Source of the DNA: Candidatus Wildermuthbacteria bacterium | GTDB taxonomy: Bacteria; Patescibacteriota; Minisyncoccia; Minisyncoccales; UBA10102 | NCBI GenBank assembly: GCA_016181405.1 | Contig: JACOZJ010000003.1 | Coordinates: forward strand, 42,749-106,748 | Reading direction: 5' to 3' | Length of the DNA: 64,000 nt | Shown: positions 1-58,069 of the stretch, piece after piece | Layout of the letters: the number at the start of each line of letters is the position of its first letter | Position numbering within the stretch: the stretch's first letter is position 1 | The notes under the pieces: model-generated | What the model was told of the DNA's origin: nothing | The model's input: only the letters and a program-made list of their open reading frames with translations | Databases searched by the model: none | Program-made: the position numbers and the translations under genes

Positions 1-1
1 A

Positions 2-469
2 ATTTGTTTTGTTGGGGAGGTAAATGTCGTTGATTTCTTAAGGCAGTATATCAAGCCAAAAAAGGGAGAAATTGTAGATACGCAAGGCAGGGTTCTTGGA
101 GCACACGAAGGAGTTATGTACTATACGGTTGGCCAACGGCAGGGGATTGGCCTCGCAGAGGGGCCGTGGTATGTGGTTTCAAAAGATCTCAAGAATAATA
201 GGTTAGTGGTTTCCAAAGATGAGGGCGATTTAATCAAAACCGCGGCAGTTGTGCGCAACGTAAACTGGTTTTCAAGACCCGATACTTTTCCTGCGGATCT
301 TACGGTTCATCTCCGCTATCGGCACGAAGGGATCAAAGCAAAAGTAGAGGATATGGGGAACGGGACATATCGCTTGCAGTTTGCAACACCCCAGCGCGCT
401 GTAACCCCCGGCCAATTTGCCGTGTTTTATCATAGCGAGGAATTACTCGGCGGCGGCGTGATCGCATAA
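2..469 (+). CDS. mnmA: tRNA 2-thiouridine(34) synthase MnmA, C-terminal part (5' end lies outside the window)
   Basis: The frame is open from the window edge. FVGEVNVVDFL...HEGVMYYTVGQRQGIGL... matches the MnmA central and C-terminal region. Confidence 0.8.
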   Translation: MCFVGEVNVVDFLRQYIKPKKGEIVDTQGRVLGAHEGVMYYTVGQRQGIGLAEGPWYVVSKDLKNNRLVVSKDEGDLIKTAAVVRNVNWFSRPDTFPADLTVHLRYRHEGIKAKVEDMGNGTYRLQFATPQRAVTPGQFAVFYHSEELLGGGVIA

Positions 470-544
470 GGTAAACTATTGACTCCATCGCTTGATGGGT
501 TATACTTAAAAAAGCTCTTTTAGTTTATTGAGTTTTTCCCTGGA

Positions 545-866
545 AGCTGTACAAGCAGGTAGAGCTGCGAGGGAAGGGCTTGAGAGGATTCTGCAAGGAG
601 TTCTGGTTGAGCCCTATCAAACTCGAAGGAGAGACCATGACTGGACCTCCGCGATTGAGAGCACGCGATCGAACAGCCTGGCGAGCATCCCCGACGGCAA
701 CGGCGCCCCTCGTTGCGCGCCCCGCTCCAGCGCCACCGACACGGCGGCCATCTGACCACGAGCCGGGTCAGGGCCCACTAGGTGCTGAAGCAGTAGGGGA
801 GTCTGGCATATGCCCGGCTCCCCTGCAACTCTACTCGCAGCCAACGAAGGCTGTTTTTTGTTTTTG
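545..866 (+). ncRNA. GC-rich structured RNA or leader upstream of alaS; identity unresolved (weak SRP-RNA-like GGUCAGG...GAAGCAG element)
   Basis: Three overlapping ORFs in different frames have Arg/Pro/Ala-rich junk translations. Strong helices are present (gagccggg/cccggctc; 564-571 with 834-841). The region ends in a stem plus T-run terminator. Confidence 0.35.
837..866 (+). terminator. Intrinsic terminator: cagcc-aacgaa-ggctg followed by TTTTTTGTTTTT
   Basis: Hairpin plus U-tract read directly from the sequence. Its 5' arm overlaps the 3' strand of the long-range helix 564-571:834-841. Confidence 0.6.
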
Positions 867-933
867 ACTAACTGTACATTTTCTATGTCTTACTCTTTTT
901 CTTTTGGGAAATTTATCGTATGATGATGCAACT

Positions 934-2793
934 ATGAAGTCGGGCGAAATTCGAGCAAAATACCTGGAATTTTTTGAGAAAAAAGGGCATACGGTGATTC
1001 CTTCCTCGGCGCTTGTGCCAGAAAACGATCCCACAACGCTTTTTACCGGTTCTGGCATGCAGCCTTTAATACCGTATTTACTCGGGCAAAAACATCCCTC
1101 GGGCAAACGGCTTACGAATTCTCAAAAATGCTTTCGCGCGGAAGACATCGAAGAAGTGGGCGACAATCGCCATACCACCTTTTTTGAAATGCTGGGCAAC
1201 TGGTCGCTCGGTGATTATTTTAAAGCAGAGCAGCTCCTGTGGTTTTTTGAATTTTTAACATCGGTAGTAGGGTTGGATCCAAACCGCTTGTATGTAACAG
1301 TATTTTCCGGCGATTCTGCAAACAATATTCCAAAAGACGAAGAGTCAATTGGCATTTGGAAACAGCTGTTCGCGCAAAAGGGTATCGAAGCAAAAGATGT
1401 GGAACTTGGTTCAGAGCAACGGGGATATGACCTTGGGATGCAGGGAGGCCGTATTTTTGCGTATGATGTTAAGAAAAACTGGTGGAGTCGCGCCGGGGCG
1501 CCAGAAAACATGCCGGCGGGGGAACCCGGCGGCCCGGATTCTGAAGTATTTTATGATTTTGGAACTCCGCACAATGAAACATTTGGAAAATACTGCCACC
1601 CAAACTGCGACTGCGGAAGATTTTTGGAAATTGGCAACTCTGTATTTATGGAATACCAGAAGCAAGACGATGGAAGTTTCGCGAAACTAGCCCAGCGCAA
1701 CGTGGATTTTGGCGGGGGATTGGAGCGCATTGTGGCGGCTTCAAACGACAATAGCGACATTTTTACAATAGATACGCTCTCTGCGGTTATTAAAAAGATC
1801 GAAGAGCTATCCGGGGCGAGCTATGAGGGCAATCAAACGGCTTTTAGGGTTATTGCCGACCATATTCGGGGAGCTGTGTTTATGATTGGCGACGGCGTGC
1901 TGCCCTCGAATACGGATCGCGGCTATTTCGTGCGGCGGCTTTTACGCCGCGCGGTTCGCTACGCCGATGTTCTCAATATGAAACAGGGGAAATTTGCCGA
2001 ACTTGCCTTGCCTGTTATCGAAAGCTATGCGGACCATTACTCCGAACTTCACGAATATGAAGCGCTTATAAAAGAAACAATCCAAAAAGAGGAATCCCGT
2101 TTTCGCGAAACTTTGGCAAATGGGCTACGCGAGTTCGAGAAGTTGAGTCAAGAAGATATTTCTGCCAGAGATGCTTTTAATTTATATCAAAGCTATGGGT
2201 TTCCCCTTGAGGTTACGGTTGACTTGAGCAAAGAGAAGGGGATTGAGGTTGACGAAAAGGGTTTTGCGGAAGAGTTTAAAAAACATCAGGAAATTTCGCG
2301 GGCAGGCGCAGAAAAGAAATTTAAAGGTGGCCTGGCCGATACCAAAGAGGAAACGGTGCGGCTTCACACGGCGCATCACTTGCTTTTAGCTGCGTTGCGG
2401 CAAGTGCTGGGTATCCATGTACACCAAAGAGGCAGCAATATTACGTCTGAACGCCTGCGTATTGATTTTTCGCATCCCCAAAAAATGGCTACAGAAGAAC
2501 TTAAGCAAGTAGAAGATTTGGTGAACCAGAAAATTGCAGAAAACCTCGATATGATTCGTAAAGAAATGCCAAAGGAAGAAGCAATGAAGCTTGGAGCCGA
2601 AATGGAATTCGGCGTGAAATATGGGGATATGGTTTCTGTGTATATGGCGCAAGACCAGCAAGGGAATGTCTTTAGCAAAGAATTTTGTGGGGGGCCGCAT
2701 GCCGAAGGTACGGGCGAACTTGGACATTTTAAAATTCTCAAGGAAGAAGCAGTGTCTGCGGGCATCCGGCGCATCCGCGCGGTGCTTGAATGA
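934..2793 (+). CDS. alaS: Alanyl-tRNA synthetase, short form (catalytic, tRNA-binding and editing domains; no C-Ala domain)
   Basis: MKSGEIRAKYLEFFEKKGH..., the HTAHHLL editing motif and CGGPH near the C-terminus. I took the ATG at 934 inside the TTG-started track ORF. Confidence 0.93.
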   Translation: MKSGEIRAKYLEFFEKKGHTVIPSSALVPENDPTTLFTGSGMQPLIPYLLGQKHPSGKRLTNSQKCFRAEDIEEVGDNRHTTFFEMLGNWSLGDYFKAEQLLWFFEFLTSVVGLDPNRLYVTVFSGDSANNIPKDEESIGIWKQLFAQKGIEAKDVELGSEQRGYDLGMQGGRIFAYDVKKNWWSRAGAPENMPAGEPGGPDSEVFYDFGTPHNETFGKYCHPNCDCGRFLEIGNSVFMEYQKQDDGSFAKLAQRNVDFGGGLERIVAASNDNSDIFTIDTLSAVIKKIEELSGASYEGNQTAFRVIADHIRGAVFMIGDGVLPSNTDRGYFVRRLLRRAVRYADVLNMKQGKFAELALPVIESYADHYSELHEYEALIKETIQKEESRFRETLANGLREFEKLSQEDISARDAFNLYQSYGFPLEVTVDLSKEKGIEVDEKGFAEEFKKHQEISRAGAEKKFKGGLADTKEETVRLHTAHHLLLAALRQVLGIHVHQRGSNITSERLRIDFSHPQKMATEELKQVEDLVNQKIAENLDMIRKEMPKEEAMKLGAEMEFGVKYGDMVSVYMAQDQQGNVFSKEFCGGPHAEGTGELGHFKILKEEAVSAGIRRIRAVLE

Positions 2794-2805
2794 TAGGAAG
2801 TAGCT

Positions 2806-2939
2806 GTGGAAGTATGTGCTTTTCTCGACACGCTCGCTTGCTCCTGCGGCAAGCTCGCTCCATCCTCGGCAAAATTTTTGCTTTCAGCAAATCCAAGCAA
2901 TTTTGCCTGCGGGGGTCTTCGAAAAGCACATGCTTCCAC
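2806..2939. repeat. 134-nt imperfect inverted repeat (multi-branched hairpin) just 3' of alaS
   Basis: Outer arms are gtggaagtatgtgcttttc and gaaaagcacatgcttccac (19 bp, 1 mismatch). Inner hairpins are gcttgc-tcctgcg-gcaagc and ggcaaaat...attttgcc enclosing tttgct-ttc-agcaaa. Confidence 0.7.
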
Positions 2940-2985
2940 GTCTCCATATAGCTTCTATACGGCATTTGTTGTAGAATAAACAAAT

Positions 2986-4122
2986 ATGGGTTTTGGATTT
3001 TTGAGTTTTGCACCGAAAAAAGGGAACAATGTTCTCGTTTTGCGCGTGGGAGAACGCGAAGTTGATTTTTTATTGTTTAAAAACGCCGGAGAAGGGATAC
3101 GTGTCCTGGCATATGGAAGTGAAGACACTTCGCATTTTCATATAGGGCAGGTATTAGAAAAAATTTTTGCGCAGCTCCCGCGAGAAGAACGTATTCACGA
3201 GCTTCGGGTAACATTTGGAACAAGTTCTTTTAGGGCGCAAGTAATAACGTTGACTCTTCCCCCCAAAACGCCTTCGCACGTTTTCGATGACGGCGAGGCG
3301 TCTTTGATTGAGAAGGAAGTCCGCGCGCGCGCGGCGCGCGCGCTCCAACGCAGTTTATTCCGAGAATCGGGTATCCTGCCCAATGAATTTTCTCTGCGCA
3401 GGGTAAAAATCCTCGGGCGGAGAATTGCCGGGTATTCTGTCCCCAAACTCGCAGGTGCCATAAGCAGAGAGCTTGAGTTTTCGCTCCTTGGAGTATTTTT
3501 GTTGGAATCCGCGTTTGTTCCTATGCGAGAATTCGCCAAAACCCATAGGATAGCCGAGATGAGTGTGATTCATATTGCGGAGGCTTTGGAATCTTTCGCT
3601 CGAAAATCCGGTCGGGAGGGCGTATATCTTTGCATGGGAGAAGAGAGAACTCAAATTGCCGTTCAAACGAAAGATCGCTTTGCGTTTCTTGGTACAGTTT
3701 CTATGGGTGCACAAAGCTTTACCGAGTTTTTTGCCGATCGTTTAGGGATGAGAGAATCTACGGCCCGTGTTTTCCAGCAGCAATACTTTGAGAACAGTCT
3801 TTCTGTGGGAGTACAGGAGAAAATGCAAGCGTATCTGTTGCCCGAAATCCAGAAGTTTGGTACATTGATAAAGCAAAAACTTTTGGAAGCAAAGATTGTG
3901 TTGCCGGGATCTTTATGGGTATTTGGAAGAGGGGATGTTCTACGGAATCTCCAAAGTTTGTTTGCACATGAGACGCTGGAGGATCTTCCGTTTTCCCAAA
4001 AACCGAAGATAAGTTTTCTATTGCCTGAAGATGTTTGGGGCGCCAAAAATTTTCCAGGGGCGCGCAATCCTTTTTATACCGAGCTTTGTTTGTTGAGCGC
4101 TTTTACATTAAATCGGCGATGA
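2986..4122 (+). CDS. Hypothetical protein (an FtsA/PilM actin-like fold is only a weak guess)
   Basis: 378-aa ORF, translationally coupled (ATGA overlap) to the next gene. No motif that I can name with confidence. Confidence 0.55.
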   Translation: MGFGFLSFAPKKGNNVLVLRVGEREVDFLLFKNAGEGIRVLAYGSEDTSHFHIGQVLEKIFAQLPREERIHELRVTFGTSSFRAQVITLTLPPKTPSHVFDDGEASLIEKEVRARAARALQRSLFRESGILPNEFSLRRVKILGRRIAGYSVPKLAGAISRELEFSLLGVFLLESAFVPMREFAKTHRIAEMSVIHIAEALESFARKSGREGVYLCMGEERTQIAVQTKDRFAFLGTVSMGAQSFTEFFADRLGMRESTARVFQQQYFENSLSVGVQEKMQAYLLPEIQKFGTLIKQKLLEAKIVLPGSLWVFGRGDVLRNLQSLFAHETLEDLPFSQKPKISFLLPEDVWGAKNFPGARNPFYTELCLLSAFTLNRR

Positions 4123-52822: not shown

Positions 52823-53164
52823 GTGGCTAACAATAAAATACTGGTTTTGCGGGTGGAAGGAGAGAGCCACCGGCAAATAATAAAGACACAGACGATTGCA
52901 CATATCACAATTACCCAATCAGCTCTCCCCAAAAGGAGAGTTGGTTGTTTAGAGAATGTCCTGCCTCTGCGAATATAAAGATACTCCCGGAGGTAGCACA
53001 TTCAAAACATCACAGCACCTTAACCATCAAGCAAGGGGGAAGAGGAACAGAAAATTCTTCCCCCATACCCTTCAGCCCACCACGAGTATCGAATGGCGAA
53101 TTGAAGGGTAACGATAGCACCCAAAAATTTCCTTCCTGTAAAGGGAAGGGGAAAGGAGAGAGCC

Positions 53165-53275
53165 ATGGTGCACCGACCTCCACGCCCGGAGACGGTGATG
53201 ACGCTTCCGCTGCCGCGTTGCGGCTGCGGGGCACGCATCGCCCCGGGTGGCTACTGTACTGGAAAGTGCAAGTAG
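53165..53275 (+). CDS. Cys-rich micro-protein (36 aa: MVHRPPRPETVMTLPLPRCGCGARIAPGGYCTGKCK)
   Basis: Translated by hand. GGAAAGGAGAGAG SD 3 nt upstream. CxC...CxxxC pattern. Confidence 0.45.
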   Translation: MVHRPPRPETVMTLPLPRCGCGARIAPGGYCTGKCK

Positions 53276-53283
53276 CCCTCAAC

Positions 53284-53388
53284 GGAGTCGGAGGAAAAGC
53301 ACTCATTGATTGCACTCATAGCATACTCTCCGACTCCTTAAGTTTAAGACCGTTGCGAAAAGCGCAGATCATAGATTTAAGGAGTCGG
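53284..53388 (+). promoter_or_regulatory. Three-segment alternative-hairpin element (1:2 versus 2:3)
   Basis: ggagtcggag (53284-93) pairs with ctccgactcc (53328-37). ccgactccttaa (53330-41) pairs with ttaaggagtcgg (53377-88). The two pairings are mutually exclusive. Confidence 0.5.
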
Positions 53389-53420
53389 ATAGATTGCGCA
53401 CCTTATGAAAGGAGGACGCC

Positions 53421-53606
53421 ATGGAAAGGCTCAATCAATCCCAAATCCGGGCCGCCCATTGGAAGATTGGAGTGAGGGGACCCGTAAACGGGTTACTCAC
53501 TCCAAGGAAACTCGCCCGGGTTTACGGAGTTAGTCCGAGCGAGACAAGAATCATCGTGTTGTCGGTATTCGTGTACCGCGCGCGGGAATGGCTTTGCCCC
53601 CGATGA
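53421..53606 (+). CDS. Small putative helix-turn-helix protein (61 aa)
   Basis: AAAGGAGG SD; ...LTPRKLARVYGVSPSETRIIV... looks like an HTH. Confidence 0.5.
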   Translation: MERLNQSQIRAAHWKIGVRGPVNGLLTPRKLARVYGVSPSETRIIVLSVFVYRAREWLCPR

Positions 53607-53872
53607 GAGCGTGCACAATCCCAGCAACCAAGCCCTGGCCCTGCGAGATCTACCAAGATTTCGCAGGGCACCCCAACTGAATCCCGAATTCATTTCGAGA
53701 TTCAACAGGGGTTAGTACATAAAAATCCATTCGTCTTCAGCGATTTGGCCAAGGCACTTGACTGAATCGTTGGAGACGAGAAGTATGGTGAGATGCGATT
53801 CGTCGAAGACCTCTTCTTGAGTGTCGAAGAACGACAAAGAAAACTCACGAAGAGTGCCAAGAAAGGCAGAAA

Positions 53873-54307
53873 ATGTCTATGTCTATACCGACGATGCTGG
53901 CGGGGCTGGCGGGGCTGGTGGTAGCGGGGATGCTGGTGGGGATGCTGATCTCCATCATCGTATGGACGGATCGGCGCCCGTCGTTCAAGACCGTGTTTGG
54001 TTTCAAGCCTCAGAACCGCAAGAGGCCTTGGTCGTCAGCGCTTCGTGCAGCGGAACAGAAAAAGGTGGCTACTGTGCTGAGTCGGTTAGCACAGACCTTT
54101 GCCACGTGCGACAAGACCGAGAGGGAGATGAAGATTGAACTCCCTGCGGATGGGGAGTTCGAGAAATGGCATACGGAACAGCGTAAACGCCTCGCGGATT
54201 TGAGGCGGGAGCTGAAAACCGCGAAGGAAGGTTTCTGGCGGGCCTATGCGCTCGCCGAGAAACAGGAATTCAGTGTACAGCGGAAGTACACTGACTACCT
54301 CCCCTAG
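53873..54307 (+). CDS. Hypothetical membrane-anchored protein (N-terminal TM helix, charged coiled C-terminus)
   Basis: MSMSIPTMLAGLAGLVVAGMLVGMLISIIVW... Preferred over the overlapping 53821-54138 frame. Confidence 0.55.
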   Translation: MSMSIPTMLAGLAGLVVAGMLVGMLISIIVWTDRRPSFKTVFGFKPQNRKRPWSSALRAAEQKKVATVLSRLAQTFATCDKTEREMKIELPADGEFEKWHTEQRKRLADLRRELKTAKEGFWRAYALAEKQEFSVQRKYTDYLP

Positions 54308-54345
54308 CGCGACCACTAAGTAGAAGGATGCGTCTCACCACGCAT

Positions 54346-54578
54346 TCTGGGCGGGAGAACAAAGGTTCAATCCCTTTCTCTCCCGCCCCCATACTTGAGC
54401 TCATGAATAAGTTCGTGGGCTGAAGAGTGGATAGCACTTTCAAAACTACAGCCGCTTCATAGCGGCGAAATGCCCTTCCGTAGCTTTATGCGAAGGAGGA
54501 CAGCTCGCTGCTATGGAAAGCGGCCTTCCGTAAACCCTCACCCTCAGCAAAAGGAGAGGTAGGAAGAGGAGAACAAGA
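54346..54578 (+). promoter_or_regulatory. Structured intergenic RNA module, copy 2
   Basis: Stem-loop 54346-54389 with a TTCAATC loop followed by CCA. GATAGCACTTTCAAAAC box. CATAGCGGCGA (54458-68) pairs with TCGCTGCTATG (54505-15). Confidence 0.6.
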
Positions 54579-54962
54579 ATGACCATGAAATCTTTCGCGG
54601 CATTGGACTGGACGTTTTCAGGCCCGGCGCGCCGGGTTACTCTCGAGTTCCCGTGCGAGACCCCTGAGGAGGCGCGGGTCCTCCTGCGGGCGGAGCATGA
54701 GGCCCGCAAGGACAAGGCATTGGAGGAAATCAAGGCCCATCCCCGCATGAAGCAGATTGGATGGGCAGGGGATCACGTCACTCCGGTAATGGGGCCCGTG
54801 CCCCCTTGGGAGGATTCCCGGTACCCAGGGTCCCTCTGCGTCGGCATCCCCAACGTGGATGCCGAGGTCGGGGTCCAAGTCGGATCCGGGATGGGAGAGA
54901 CGGACCGGATATACCGCATTGAGGCGGTGCCGGGGGGCGGCACGCGCGCCGTGCGTGTCTGA
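54579..54962 (+). CDS. Hypothetical protein (127 aa)
   Basis: GGAAGAGGAG SD; no recognisable motif. Confidence 0.55.
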   Translation: MTMKSFAALDWTFSGPARRVTLEFPCETPEEARVLLRAEHEARKDKALEEIKAHPRMKQIGWAGDHVTPVMGPVPPWEDSRYPGSLCVGIPNVDAEVGVQVGSGMGETDRIYRIEAVPGGGTRAVRV

Positions 54963-55090
54963 CGCAAGAGAAGACCAGGCTGGGGGTGAAGCCGGCCAAA
55001 AAGAATAGTTTCCCAGTATCATGAAACTGGGGGCGCTGACCACGGCGCCATACAGCAGTGGGAGGTCGTTCTGCCCGAGGCGGAAGGACC

Positions 55091-55366
55091 TAAGGCGAGA
55101 GAGGAAGGTTAATCCCTTTCTCTCCCGCCCCATACTTGAGCTCATGAATAAATTCGTGGGCTGAAGAGTGGATAGCACTTTCAAAACCACAGCTGCTTCA
55201 TAGCGGCGAAATGAACATTTCCGTCTCATCGACGGATATGCCGACGAGGCATAAACCAGAAACGCTCAAGATGCATGAAAGAAATGATTTGGAGTGGAAA
55301 ACAGAGTTAGTGTTCAGCTCGCTGCTATAAAGTGGCAAATCTTGAGCCTGAGAGCAGGAGGAGAAC
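55091..55366 (+). promoter_or_regulatory. Structured intergenic RNA module, copy 3
   Basis: The first ~120 nt are about 95% identical to copy 2. ATAGCGGCGA (55200-09) pairs with TCGCTGCTAT (55319-28). The insert shares blocks with copy 1. Confidence 0.6.
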
Positions 55367-55561
55367 ATGAAAAAAAACGCCTTGTCGACGATCTTCCTAG
55401 TCGGTTTTTCCCTCGTGGGCGCTTTCGGGGGCGCCCTCGGAGGGGTCAGTGTCAGCGCTCTCATTGGTATTAACCCAAACACTGCCGCCCTATGGGGCGG
55501 TATCGTCGGTGCCATCGCTATGACGGCGGTGGCGGTCCTCAGCATCAATAGGTGGAAATAA
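55367..55561 (+). CDS. Glycine-zipper small hydrophobic protein (64 aa)
   Basis: GGAGGAG SD; ...LVGAFGGALGGVSVSALIG...LWGGIVGAIAMTAVAVL... Confidence 0.65.
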   Translation: MKKNALSTIFLVGFSLVGAFGGALGGVSVSALIGINPNTAALWGGIVGAIAMTAVAVLSINRWK

Positions 55562-55591
55562 AACGCAAGGAGATAACCTTTCGTGCAATAA

Positions 55592-55640
55592 GGTAGGGAG
55601 GCGAACGGTTCTATTCCGCTTCCTCCCTACCACTTTCTTG
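55592..55640 (+). terminator. Stem-loop ggtagggagg..cgg-ttctatt-ccg..cctccctacc, same architecture as the module stem-loops
   Basis: 10-bp stem, internal loop, 3 bp and a 7-nt loop, followed by ACTTTCTT. Confidence 0.5.
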
Positions 55641-55731
55641 CGTACAGCTGTGATCTACTCTCTCCTCCGCCTCACCGGCGGATCCATCATAGCTGTACAC
55701 AAGAGAGAAATACTTTTCCACTTCTCAAATA

Positions 55732-55759
55732 TTGACAGGATGGCACGCAGTGCTAGACT
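55732..55759 (+). promoter_or_regulatory. Promoter TTGACA-N16-TAGACT (TG immediately upstream of the -10 region)
   Basis: Read directly from the sequence. The track ORF 55732-55935 begins at the TTG of this -35 box. Confidence 0.55.
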
Positions 55760-55944
55760 ATCCTAATTTCACAGCATGCACCCTCGAACGTGATGCGGAA
55801 ATGGGGGATGGATTGGCAAGGAGTATTGATTCTTTGGCAATCCCGTCCCTGTTTCGTACCACAATTCAGCGGCAGGGAGGAGAGGAGGTACAACTTGAAA
55901 GTCTAAAATACAAATCAACGCGTTCTTTTTCATAAACGAGGAGG

Positions 55945-56097
55945 ATGACGATGCAATCGAATAGAGGGAGAATCCGGGGATGCCTGGGTCAGACCTATGC
56001 CTCTCCGATTCAGCCGAAGCGCTTTCGGCCGCAGCGCCCCCGCGCGTCGCATCGCCGGAAGCCCATCGTCAAGATCATCCTGATCTCCAACACGTAA
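55945..56097 (+). CDS. Highly basic 50-aa protein (MTMQSNRGRIRGCLGQTYASPIQPKRFRPQRPRASHRRKPIVKIILISNT)
   Basis: Translated by hand. GAGGAGG SD. An 11-bp stem hairpin follows at 56121-56157. Confidence 0.45.
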   Translation: MTMQSNRGRIRGCLGQTYASPIQPKRFRPQRPRASHRRKPIVKIILISNT

Positions 56098-56172
56098 CCT
56101 CGTTGGCGCCCGATAACCCCAACAACCCCTCGGATTGTGGTACATCCGAGGGGTTCATCATTTGTGTGGGGG

Positions 56173-56200
56173 TTGACACTATTTTTTGATCGTGTATACT
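56173..56200 (+). promoter_or_regulatory. Consensus promoter TTGACA-N16-TATACT
   Basis: Read directly from the sequence. Confidence 0.6.
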
Positions 56201-56206
56201 CAATCG

Positions 56207-56342
56207 TACATAAATATGAACTCACGCTATCTTTTCTGCATGTGTCTTTGTGCCAGCCCAGAGAAGAGTCTGCGTGTTTCGCGTTAAGACATTTTGTTAT
56301 TTGAAACCAGCCAGCCTCTTCTCTTCAGGGGCTGGTTTTTTG
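56207..56342 (+). ncRNA. Candidate ~135-nt sRNA bracketed by a consensus promoter and a strong terminator (contains an SD-less 23-codon ORF)
   Basis: Promoter at 56173-56200. Terminator aaccagcc...ggctggtt plus TTTTT at 56305-56342. Confidence 0.4.
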
Positions 56343-56419
56343 TAGCTTGGCAGAGACTCAAAACCCATTGTGCGTCTCTGCCAGGAAACAATCCTGGAAT
56401 ACAGAAAGGAGAAAGGGAA

Positions 56420-56740
56420 ATGGCCAGAATAATAGGAGTGTTTGAAGGCCCAACTTCCCTACAGGAAGTCTTCGGCAGAAACGTGCCGAACAGAAGGTCT
56501 TTTGAATCGTACGAAGACCTTCTCAAAGCCCTCAAGGAGGGGCTGCTTGACGGCATCGTCATACCGGAGAATCTCGTCAGCAGAACTTTCGTGGCAGCGC
56601 AAATGGGGTTGATACAGTGCGTGCGTGGATTCGCGTATATCAAGCCGTCGCTCGAGATACGGGTCCGCCGCGCGCGAAGCCGCATGCACGAACGCCGCGC
56701 TTGGCGAGAGTATACGCCGCCCCGGCGCCTTCCCTGTTAA
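56420..56740 (+). CDS. Hypothetical 106-aa protein resembling the N-terminal part of a prephenate-dehydratase or periplasmic-binding-protein type-2 fold (fragment?)
   Basis: AAAGGAGAAAGGG SD; MARIIGVFEGPTSLQEVF...SFESYEDLLKALKEGLLDGIVIPENLVS... Confidence 0.45.
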   Translation: MARIIGVFEGPTSLQEVFGRNVPNRRSFESYEDLLKALKEGLLDGIVIPENLVSRTFVAAQMGLIQCVRGFAYIKPSLEIRVRRARSRMHERRAWREYTPPRRLPC

Positions 56741-56759
56741 CCTGCACCTTACAACGTAG

Positions 56760-56792
56760 AAGCCCCGCCTTTATGGCAGGGGCTTTCTTTTT
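56760..56792 (+). terminator. Intrinsic terminator aagccccgcc-tttat-ggcaggggctt plus TTCTTTTT
   Basis: GC stem with one bulged A, followed by a T-run. Confidence 0.65.
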
Positions 56793-56796
56793 GGGG

Positions 56797-56825
56797 TTGA
56801 CAAACCCGAGAGACAGAAATAACAT
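56797..56825 (+). promoter_or_regulatory. Promoter TTGACA-N17-TAACAT upstream of khpA
   Basis: Read directly from the sequence. Confidence 0.5.
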
Positions 56826-56869
56826 AAAGAAAAGTCGAATAGCAGAAAGTTACAGAATTCAGAATTCAA

Positions 56870-57178
56870 ATGGCAGAAGAGACACCTCAGTACCAAGCAT
56901 TGCTCGAGTATATCGTGAAATCCTTGGTGGACAATCCGAACGACGTAACGGTAGAACGCAAAGTAGATGAAATGGGCGTACTGCTTTCTTTGAAAGTGCA
57001 CGCTCAAGACATGGGTCAAATAGTCGGCCGACAGGGTTCTACCGCGCGAGCAATTCGCACATTGGTTCGCATCGCGGGCCTCAAAGCTCACGCACGGGTA
57101 AACCTCAAGATTGAAGAGCCAGAAGGCGGCCGCGGCCCCCGAAAGAGCGAAGAACCTCTTGCGGGGTTGAACATCTAA
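56870..57178 (+). CDS. khpA: KH-domain RNA-binding protein (KhpA/YlqC, UPF0109)
   Basis: ...LLEYIVKSLVDNPNDVTVERKVDEMGVLLSLKVHAQDMGQIVGRQGSTARAIRTLV... Confidence 0.88.
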   Translation: MAEETPQYQALLEYIVKSLVDNPNDVTVERKVDEMGVLLSLKVHAQDMGQIVGRQGSTARAIRTLVRIAGLKAHARVNLKIEEPEGGRGPRKSEEPLAGLNI

Positions 57179-57243
57179 ACGAAAATTAGAACTTGAAATC
57201 TGCAAGAACGGTGTTACGATAGGGTAATGCCGTTTTTGTTTAT

Positions 57244-57945
57244 ATGAAATTCGATATCATCACCATATTTCCGCAAATTTTTGATTCCTATTTTGCCGAG
57301 TCACTTTTGAAACGCGCCCAAGAAAAAAAACTTCTTGAGATTCGCGTACACAATCTGCGCGATTGGACCGAAGACTCCCACAAAACAGTGGACGACAGCC
57401 CATTCGGCGGGGGATTGGGAATGGTAATGAAAATTGAGCCGATCTACAAGGCCGTAATAGGCCTAAAGTCTCAAGGATCAAACTCCAAGGCCCAAGCAAA
57501 CCCTAAGTTTCCAAACCTCAAACAACGCGTTATCCTTTTCACGCCGAGGGGAAAGAAATTTACGCAACGAAAGGCGCACGAATATGCAAAGCTCGACCAA
57601 CTTATTATGATCTGCGGCCGATACGAGGGAGTCGATGAGAGAGTAGGGAAGTATATTGCAGACGAGCAACTCTCTATAGGGGATTATGACTTAATGGGTG
57701 GGGAGCTTCCTGCAATGATTGTAGTGGAAACTGTTTCGCGCTTAATTCCCGGCGTTATTGGCAAAGAAGAATTTCTGAAAGAGCATATAAAAGATGGGGG
57801 ATTTATAGAATATCCACAGTACACGCGGCCTGAAGTATTTGTGGATGCAAAAAGGAAAAAACGAACTGTACCACAAGTATTGCTATCCGGAAATCACAAA
57901 AAAATTGAAGAGTGGCGGCAAAGACACGAAAAGCTCATCAAATGA
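57244..57945 (+). CDS. trmD: tRNA (guanine37-N1)-methyltransferase
   Basis: MKFDIITIFPQIFDSYF...DDSPFGGGLGMVMK...CGRYEGVDERV... Confidence 0.93.
   Translation: MKFDIITIFPQIFDSYFAESLLKRAQEKKLLEIRVHNLRDWTEDSHKTVDDSPFGGGLGMVMKIEPIYKAVIGLKSQGSNSKAQANPKFPNLKQRVILFTPRGKKFTQRKAHEYAKLDQLIMICGRYEGVDERVGKYIADEQLSIGDYDLMGGELPAMIVVETVSRLIPGVIGKEEFLKEHIKDGGFIEYPQYTRPEVFVDAKRKKRTVPQVLLSGNHKKIEEWRQRHEKLIK
57464..57525. repeat. Possible degenerate family-B-like insertion in trmD (encodes KSQGSNSKAQANPKFPNLKQ)
   Basis: Extra loop relative to the usual TrmD ...AV....VILLSP... spacing. The peptide resembles the thrS insert. DNA similarity is weak. Confidence 0.35.
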
Positions 57946-57986
57946 TTGAAAAATGCGGGAAAACGTGGTAGGATATGCGAGGTAAA

Positions 57987-58069
57987 GCGTGGATGGCAGA
58001 GCGGTCAATTGCATGTGGCTGTAAACCACACGCCTTCGGGCTACGGGGGTTCGAATCCCTCTCCACGCA
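57987..58069 (+). tRNA. tRNA-Tyr (GUA) with long variable arm, CCA not encoded
   Basis: Acceptor GCGUGGA/UCCACGC-A, anticodon loop CUGUAAA, 14-nt variable arm, T-loop UUCGAAU. Confidence 0.9.

Follow-up and report, generated by a model that had tools for sequence, protein, structure and literature searches.

The gap between mnmA and alaS in the window (by which we mean the whole stretch of 64,000 nucleotides that was analyzed) contains an element of ~350 nt on the + strand. We read it, with about as much confidence as doubt, as a lineage-restricted and independently transcribed structured sRNA gene. So far it has been found only in two groundwater CPR bacteria that are close relatives, and none of the known RNA families matches it. 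It has what is generically looked for in an sRNA gene, namely its own promoter and a Rho-independent terminator on one strand together with no conserved ORF. The first-pass annotation had placed a stand-alone RNA second, after a riboswitch or leader of alaS, and it is this second choice that is favored by the promoter–terminator bracket, by a conservation above that of alaS and by structure that is specific to the + strand.

The mnmA gene, which is cut by the left edge of the window, stops at 469 and the alaS ATG is located at 934, leaving a gap of 465 nt. The start of the alaS ORF (934-2793, 619 aa) was set by comparison with relatives, its product is 100% identical to a protein of a Candidatus Wildermuthbacteria MAG, and the best AlaS relatives all belong to the Patescibacteria. 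AlaS carries the tRNA-synt_2c and tRNA_SAD domains; in model bacteria the protein is roughly 870 aa in size, and a short form of ~600-680 aa is also found in the listed CPR relatives. The region 584-866 is the GC maximum of the 64-kb window; 150-nt segments in it reach 0.72, compared with a mean of 0.48 (sd 0.057). It was proposed earlier that the gap is G+C-rich, carries three overlapping junk ORFs and ends in a terminator; the composition and the terminator stand, and the overlapping ORFs are four, of 75-95 aa, on both strands and with junk-like products. The predicted transcription start from the promoter at 479-506 is at ~513, and a small hairpin inside the promoter spacer (484-499) may also end mnmA transcription. 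On the minus strand of the gap no comparable promoter or terminator sites were found, and the two sites frame the element on one strand both in the window and in its homologue, L161. The features of the region, in window coordinates, are the following.

479-506, + strand: promoter of the sigma-70 type, TTGACT-16-TATACT, near-consensus with 10/12 matches.
513-651, + strand: conserved 5' domain, consisting of an AU-rich 5' tail, a three-way junction and hairpin H3; 136/140 identical to L161.
652-723, + strand: variable spacer, GC-rich and C-rich, with no excess structure.
724-792, + strand: branched hairpin that starts the 3' domain, with the outer stem GCUCCAGCG / GUGCUGAAGC and variable loops.
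793-826, + strand: strong hairpin H6, GGGGAGUCUGGC AUAU GCCCGGCUCCCC, z -5.5.
837-866, + strand: intrinsic terminator recognized by sequence, with a stem at 837-854, then UUUUUGUUUUU, the T-run reaching 866.
863-905, + strand: apparent deletion scar of a former cassette, from the alignment with L161.
919-936, + strand: alaS -10-like box TATGAT (919-924), 9 nt before the ATG at 934, with no Shine-Dalgarno; not part of the RNA.

The homologue L161 is a groundwater contig whose AlaS is 93% identical to that of the window. Window 434-874 corresponds to L161 945-1389 and window 893-1000 to L161 2989-3096. Along the gap, the identity to L161 is distributed as follows.

470-512 (promoter): 43/43.
513-651 (5' domain): 136/140.
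652-685: 15/34, with a +1 indel at 651/652.
686-723: 30/38.
724-765: 32/46.
766-866 (3' domain): 97/101.

The same promoter is present at 990-1017 in L161. In the center (652-765) the identity falls to 65% and indels appear. For comparison, the overall identity of alaS between the window and L161 is 90%, with 78% at the third positions of codons and 74.6% at fourfold-degenerate sites, so that both ends of the element are more conserved than this essential protein gene. Since the center changes at about the neutral rate and with indels, the whole element seems to have come by vertical descent. The contrast between center and ends suggests that the two ends are under purifying selection, which we infer to act on the RNA. 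The high identity of the ends could in principle come from recent recombination instead of selection.

The predicted fold follows the same division. In the 5' domain a closing stem (528-535/618-625) holds a three-way junction with the arms H1 (536-575) and H2 (575-616), the latter capped by a GNRA loop at 593-596, and is followed by hairpin H3 (628-650), in which GGAG is paired with CCUCC and the AUG at 637 lies in the loop. In the 3' domain, the inner hairpin of 724-792 is formed by GGCC..CUGACC, a loop and GGUCAGGGCC. When compared with shuffled sequences, 526-651 gives a fold z of -4.65 on the + strand and -1.68 on the minus strand, and 724-836 gives -5.09 (to -5.8) and -2.47, respectively. 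H1 and H2 have z values of -4.2 and -3.4. The same test gives -2.1 to +1.1 for tiles of alaS and +0.62 for the center of the element (652-765). The fold of the 5' domain is strand-specific because it contains six G-U pairs. It is the conserved ends that fold strongly and in a + strand-specific manner, whereas the variable part shows no excess folding.

The substitutions between the two copies fit this picture. In the 5' domain there are three, two in the unpaired tail (515 and 523) and one at the N of the GNRA loop (594, GCAA to GUAA). In the 3' domain, L161 retains the stem 752-757/766-771, in which a C-G pair has become U-G and whose loop (758-765) is rewritten, and the changes at 815-817 in H6 turn a U-G pair into U-A, gain a U-G and lose a C-G; the hairpin is kept with its mismatch shifted, and 7/8 tested pairs are intact. 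The terminator stem is invariant and the T-run differs by one T. These few substitutions avoid or preserve pairs, which is consistent with a constraint at the RNA level. The consensus fold of the two sequences holds three one-sided, pair-preserving changes and no pair that is changed on both sides, and the two copies are near-identical in the structured parts.

The first choice of the first-pass annotation was a riboswitch or leader logic in front of alaS. As a cis-acting leader, the element would let a signal switch between an antiterminator and the 837-854 terminator and so control read-through into alaS. This is suggested by the strong promoter, the long structured RNA and the terminator directly upstream of an aaRS gene, by a 5' three-way junction that is aptamer-like in look, and by two alternative pairings that would compete with the terminator, 564-571/834-841 and 672-679/848-855. 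The first of these, GCTGCGAG with CTCGCAGC, had been described as a closing helix that competes with the terminator, and it is present as placed. However, the competing helices are at chance level. Of the proposed switch helices, 564-571/834-841 never varies and 760-767/813-820 is broken in L161. The 354-nt stretch contains three perfect 8-bp helices against 0.87 expected (p ~0.055), and the complementarity between the 5' and the 3' domain is not above that of shuffled sequences (p 0.2-0.28). Because both arms of the closing helix are invariant in the sole homologue, this helix is uninformative.

Two internal helices had also been named. The one between GAGCCGGG and CCCGGCTC exists, at 760-767/813-820 rather than at 761-768/811-818. 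It is broken in L161, where 4/8 pairs are left and these are not contiguous, and it was rejected as a switch helix since only scattered pairs remain. The other, GGGGAGTC with GGCTCCCC, is present at 796-803/816-823, and its hairpin (796-823) is retained. In the homologue, the helices thus fare differently: hairpin 796-823 and the terminator are kept, 760-767/813-820 is lost and the closing helix does not vary. A T-box is characterized by a Stem I with a specifier loop and by a conserved T-box sequence in the antiterminator; no match to the T-box model (RF00230) or to another riboswitch was obtained at E<=10, in either copy for the T-box, and no conserved T-box sequence was found. In addition, the neutral spacer of ~70-110 nt that would separate the ‘aptamer’ from the ‘expression platform’ is atypical of a leader.

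The upstream regions of alaS in relatives, which the first-pass annotation regarded as informative, also speak against a leader. In 141 CPR loci whose upstream sequence is long enough, the nearest long ORF before alaS lies at a median distance of 78 nt, and none of the long upstream gaps among them is markedly GC-enriched. The element is absent upstream of alaS in L001, L021 and L163-L166. In these relatives, at 74-81% AlaS identity, the junction holds ~70 nt in L001, a 74-aa zinc-ribbon ORF in L021, a 138-aa gene in L163/L164 and a 65-aa gene in L166. The mnmA–alaS junction looks like a hot spot of gene content, which can hold nothing, small ORFs, or, in L161, the RNA element and a radical-SAM cassette.

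The alaS gene appears to have its own promoter. L161 and L162 show the same -10 layout as the window and no Shine-Dalgarno; in L163/L164, L021, L001 and L002 the box is TATACT/TATATT, with its end 6-7 nt upstream of the alaS ATG, and clade-wide a -10-like hexamer ends 6-9 nt before the ATG without a Shine-Dalgarno. This suggests that the alaS mRNA is leaderless and is made from its own promoter. Read-through transcripts would be poor templates for AlaS, because there is no Shine-Dalgarno and the -10 box abuts the ATG. With the element missing from relatives and, in L161, placed before a different gene set that has its own promoter, we consider a leader of alaS quite unlikely and retain the stand-alone sRNA gene.

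In L161, a cassette of 1.6 kb (1379-2992) separates the terminator of the element from alaS. It has its own promoter (1379-1407) and its own terminator (2969-2992). The first gene of the cassette, 60 nt downstream of the element, encodes a protein similar to radical-SAM/SPASM peptide maturases; its best NCBIfam matches are mycofactocin and sactipeptide maturases, all below the cut-offs. The second gene encodes a coiled-coil-like protein of 90 aa that ends in SGGGCLRA (SGGSCLIA in L162), which is a plausible RiPP-type substrate of the cassette. TTGACT at 863-868 of the window is the -35 box of the cassette promoter in L161, and CTCTTTTTCTTTT at 893-905 is the T-run of the cassette terminator. 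As these two pieces are all that the window keeps of the cassette, the region was read as a deletion scar, and it appears that the window genome deleted the cassette. The breakpoints are located just outside the terminator of the element. Thus, the terminator of the element precedes different genes in the two genomes, and the element, the cassette and alaS each have their own promoter-like site. A possible target-site duplication (515-526/893-904), T-rich and 83% identical, was rejected, as its right copy is the T-run of the cassette terminator.

The other side of the element also differs in L161. Upstream of it, at 900-983, only the last ~13 codons of mnmA (…VWSEQIIGGGVIA*) are left; before them come stop codons and small genes of membrane- or lipoprotein-like type that are unrelated, and right after alaS the synteny is lost again. 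These flanks reflect either heavy rearrangement or a chimeric assembly.

Such flanks raise another option, that the element is a functionless remnant of GC-rich DNA, inserted or foreign, at a hot spot of recombination between mnmA and alaS, in which case the identity of the ends would be the result of recent recombination or hitch-hiking. The different small genes at the junction in each relative, the rearrangement of L161 on all sides (the 13 mnmA codons, the inserted cassette, the synteny lost after alaS), a GC content that is foreign to the genome and the existence of two known copies all fit this option. Yet the center is still ~65-79% identical with recognizable blocks, which fits neutral vertical descent, and two separate recombination tracts would be needed to explain the two ends. 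The conserved ends coincide exactly with the + strand-specific folding, and the promoter and the terminator are intact in both genomes. A blastn search of plasmids and phages with the element gave no match, and two exact-pattern scans of viral contigs found nothing. We regard a remnant as unlikely, though less so than a leader of alaS.

Can the element encode a protein instead? The candidates are the ORF that starts at ATG-637 (76 aa) and the frame 528-755, either as a small protein or as a RiPP-like precursor for the radical-SAM/SPASM enzyme. A good Shine-Dalgarno and AUG (630-639) lie within the conserved part, and AAGGAGAGACC-ATG (627-639) forms a good and conserved ribosome-binding site, which hints at some translation-related role. 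The ATG-637 frame has a GC content by codon position of 0.68/0.56/0.72, which is weakly coding-like; in both genomes the 528-755 frame has a conserved part of 41 codons and then a variable tail, which is similarly long in the two, and in L161 the maturase-like gene lies only 60 nt downstream. However, no ORF through the center stays intact in both genomes, since each has a frameshift or a stop in one of them. The ATG-637 ORF has a +1 indel after codon 5 relative to L161, so its two peptides share only MTGPP, and the 3' domain is then read in different frames although it is 96% identical. The 528-755 frame lacks a Shine-Dalgarno and has a CAA to TAA change at codon 23 in L161, the genome that bears the enzyme. 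The minus-strand frames also differ between the window and L161.

The substitution pattern and the protein searches lead in the same direction. The element shows no synonymous-type pattern of substitutions relative to L161, against a 22% divergence at the third positions of alaS. No match to the two most coding-like frames was found among 5.8 billion proteins, and a search of 1.84 billion representatives with the ATG-637 ORF gave only two, to proteins of 988 and 1330 aa over multiple short stretches, which are taken to be low-complexity matches. Pfam found no family in five frames, an exact look-up of eight ORF variants in the protein collection found none of them, and no gene is called across the element in L161. 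As for a RiPP precursor, all candidate frames are interrupted by a frameshift or stop, the window lacks the maturase-like gene, and the likelier substrate of the cassette is the 90-aa protein ending in GGGCLRA, encoded downstream of the enzyme. A protein-coding role is very unlikely on this evidence, and the sRNA gene is kept as the preferred reading.

The first-pass annotation had also brought the SRP, T-box, RNase P, tmRNA and 6S families into consideration, and no family was recognized by Rfam even at E<=10. At the gathering threshold, Rfam found 6 tRNAs in the whole window and nothing near the element; with relaxed filters and E<=10, the window copy and the L161 copy gave only meaningless matches at E>1 (three for the window copy). 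ARAGORN called no tmRNA in 1-3000. A divergent universal RNA (SRP, RNase P, tmRNA or 6S) that is missed by the Rfam models would nevertheless agree with the ~350 nt size, with the GC enrichment and with a separate promoter and terminator, as is typical of such RNAs in AT-richer genomes. The stretch GGUCAGGGCC...GAAGCAG, moreover, is loosely like SRP helix 8.

Taken family by family, the agreement is not maintained. SRP domain IV is marked by helix 8 with symmetric and asymmetric loops and a GNRA-type tetraloop; no SRP model (RF00169, RF01854) matched either copy at E<=10, and the likeness to helix 8 that was noticed earlier dissolves on folding, since GGUCAG pairs with the upstream CUGACC as the 3' strand of a conserved local hairpin (752-757/766-771) instead of forming the 5' strand of helix 8. 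RNase P RNA has the P4 pseudoknot with its GAGGAAAGUCC and ACAGAA...GGCUUA strands, both absent from the element by reading, and RF00010 and RF00011 gave no match in either copy at E<=10. The tmRNA has a tRNA-like domain made from both ends (T-arm, CCA end) and a tag reading frame; neither Rfam nor ARAGORN gave a match, and by inspection there is no T-loop or CCA end. 6S RNA is one long irregular helix of ~180-200 nt with a large central bubble; RF00013 did not match at E<=10, and the element has no single long bulged helix but folds as a multi-branched structure with three separate 5' hairpins. Membership in the T-box, SRP, RNase P, tmRNA and 6S families was rejected because of these missing Rfam and ARAGORN matches. 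A universal RNA that is 97% identical at an AlaS identity of 93% would also not be missing from the locus, and be without any similar sequence, in relatives at 80%. We find it hardly credible that the element is one of them.

The known distribution of the element is narrow. Blastn, nhmmer and covariance models of the 5' domain (R1) and of the 3' domain (R2) were run against 166 loci, ~1.1 Mb of CPR DNA, and against the whole window, and only L161 was recovered. With a single homologue in ~1.1 Mb, the family may be very young or narrow. Several elements associated with mobile or variable DNA were considered as well. The variable region of a DGR was rejected, as the center contains indels and has no second copy in the window, and an invertible segment was rejected since the two copies are collinear. 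For a retron, an omega RNA (an IS-encoded guide) or a bridge RNA, the gene order shows no reverse transcriptase, TnpB, IscB or IS110 gene nearby.

Another GC-raised stretch of the window should be mentioned separately. At 52900-56870, no convincing long ORF is seen over ~4 kb of a genome that is otherwise densely packed, and the GC content peaks at 0.60-0.70. Nine candidate ORFs in it have no Pfam family and Rfam is empty there even at relaxed thresholds. The part 55158-58060 has a 100% identical counterpart in a Logan contig (L167), where the genes called in this stretch are only of 61-106 aa and have no families. The stretch may represent clustered orphan genes of tiny size, DNA in decay or non-coding RNA. 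Its GC-richest part is bracketed by a direct repeat of 104 nt (54369-54472 and 55111-55214, in the regions 54349-54472 and 55097-55214), with copies ~97% identical and 742 nt apart. Ahead of the first copy there is a hairpin of 17 bp, GGGCGGGAGAACAAAGG TTCAAT CCCTTTCTCTCCCGCCC, whose loop is T-loop-like and which resembles a tRNA acceptor/T-arm minihelix; ARAGORN calls no tRNA there. The Logan assembly breaks inside the second copy, and the repeat could be an att-like duplication around a small insert.

Based on these data we can suggest how the sRNA gene would work. The promoter at 479-506 would start transcription at ~513 and the terminator at 837-866 would stop it, making the element a single transcription unit. 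The RNA would consist of two folded and constrained domains, joined by a fast-evolving, unstructured and C-rich spacer of ~70-110 nt; the 5' domain would form the three-way junction with its GNRA-capped arm and a small hairpin, and the 3' domain the branched hairpin, the strong hairpin and the terminator. The terminator would be the 3' end of the RNA itself and would insulate the neighboring gene, with alaS expressed from its own leaderless-type promoter. Most likely, such an RNA would act in trans, as a protein-binding or base-pairing regulator. A further and more tentative idea, which we consider possible rather than probable, is that the element is the founding member of an undescribed RNA class of the CPR (Wildermuthbacteria lineage), a molecule of ~350 nt with two almost invariant domains and a neutrally drifting linker. 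It might serve as an RNP scaffold, as a ribozyme, or as a ligand sensor controlling access to the Shine-Dalgarno/AUG that is sequestered at 630-639.

The genomes of CPR/Patescibacteria are tiny and contain very little non-coding DNA, and to our knowledge hardly anything is known about the regulatory RNAs of this group. In such genomes, a non-coding unit of 350 nt whose conservation exceeds that of an essential synthetase gene is therefore likely to have a function. If a family is confirmed by wider searches, it would join the few structured RNAs of the CPR radiation that are known to be lineage-specific. At present the evidence describes a narrow, two-copy orphan, and the more exciting reading, a new aaRS riboswitch, is unsupported.

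When compared with known systems, the element resembles each of them in part. With T-box RNAs and attenuators (RF00230) it shares the position upstream of an aaRS gene, the intrinsic terminator and a structured RNA in a class of 200-350 nt. It differs from them in having no model match, in being unlinked to alaS in L161 and absent in relatives, in its alternative helices, which are unsupported, and in an alaS that looks leaderless with its own promoter. With SRP domain IV (helix 8) it shares the strings GGUCAGG and GAAGCAG, ~15 nt apart, but there is no model match, the spacing and the tetraloop do not fit and GGUCAG belongs to a local hairpin. The central part of SRP RNA is its most conserved one, whereas the center of the element is its variable part. 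RNase P RNA and tmRNA have, like the element, conserved and structured 5' and 3' parts around a variable middle at a size of ~350 nt; the element is without their signature sequences and pseudoknots and without a match in Rfam or ARAGORN, and its known distribution is very narrow. The Breaker laboratory has reportedly searched for structured sRNAs as GC-rich intergenic islands in AT-richer genomes (the GC-IGR approach, e.g. PMC8632094). Compared with the sRNAs of that approach, the element has no family or covariation support, is known in two copies and is built of two domains with a neutral spacer; what it shares with them is a long intergenic region, much more GC-rich than the genome and without coding potential, that has a promoter and an intrinsic terminator of its own and folds stably in a strand-specific manner.
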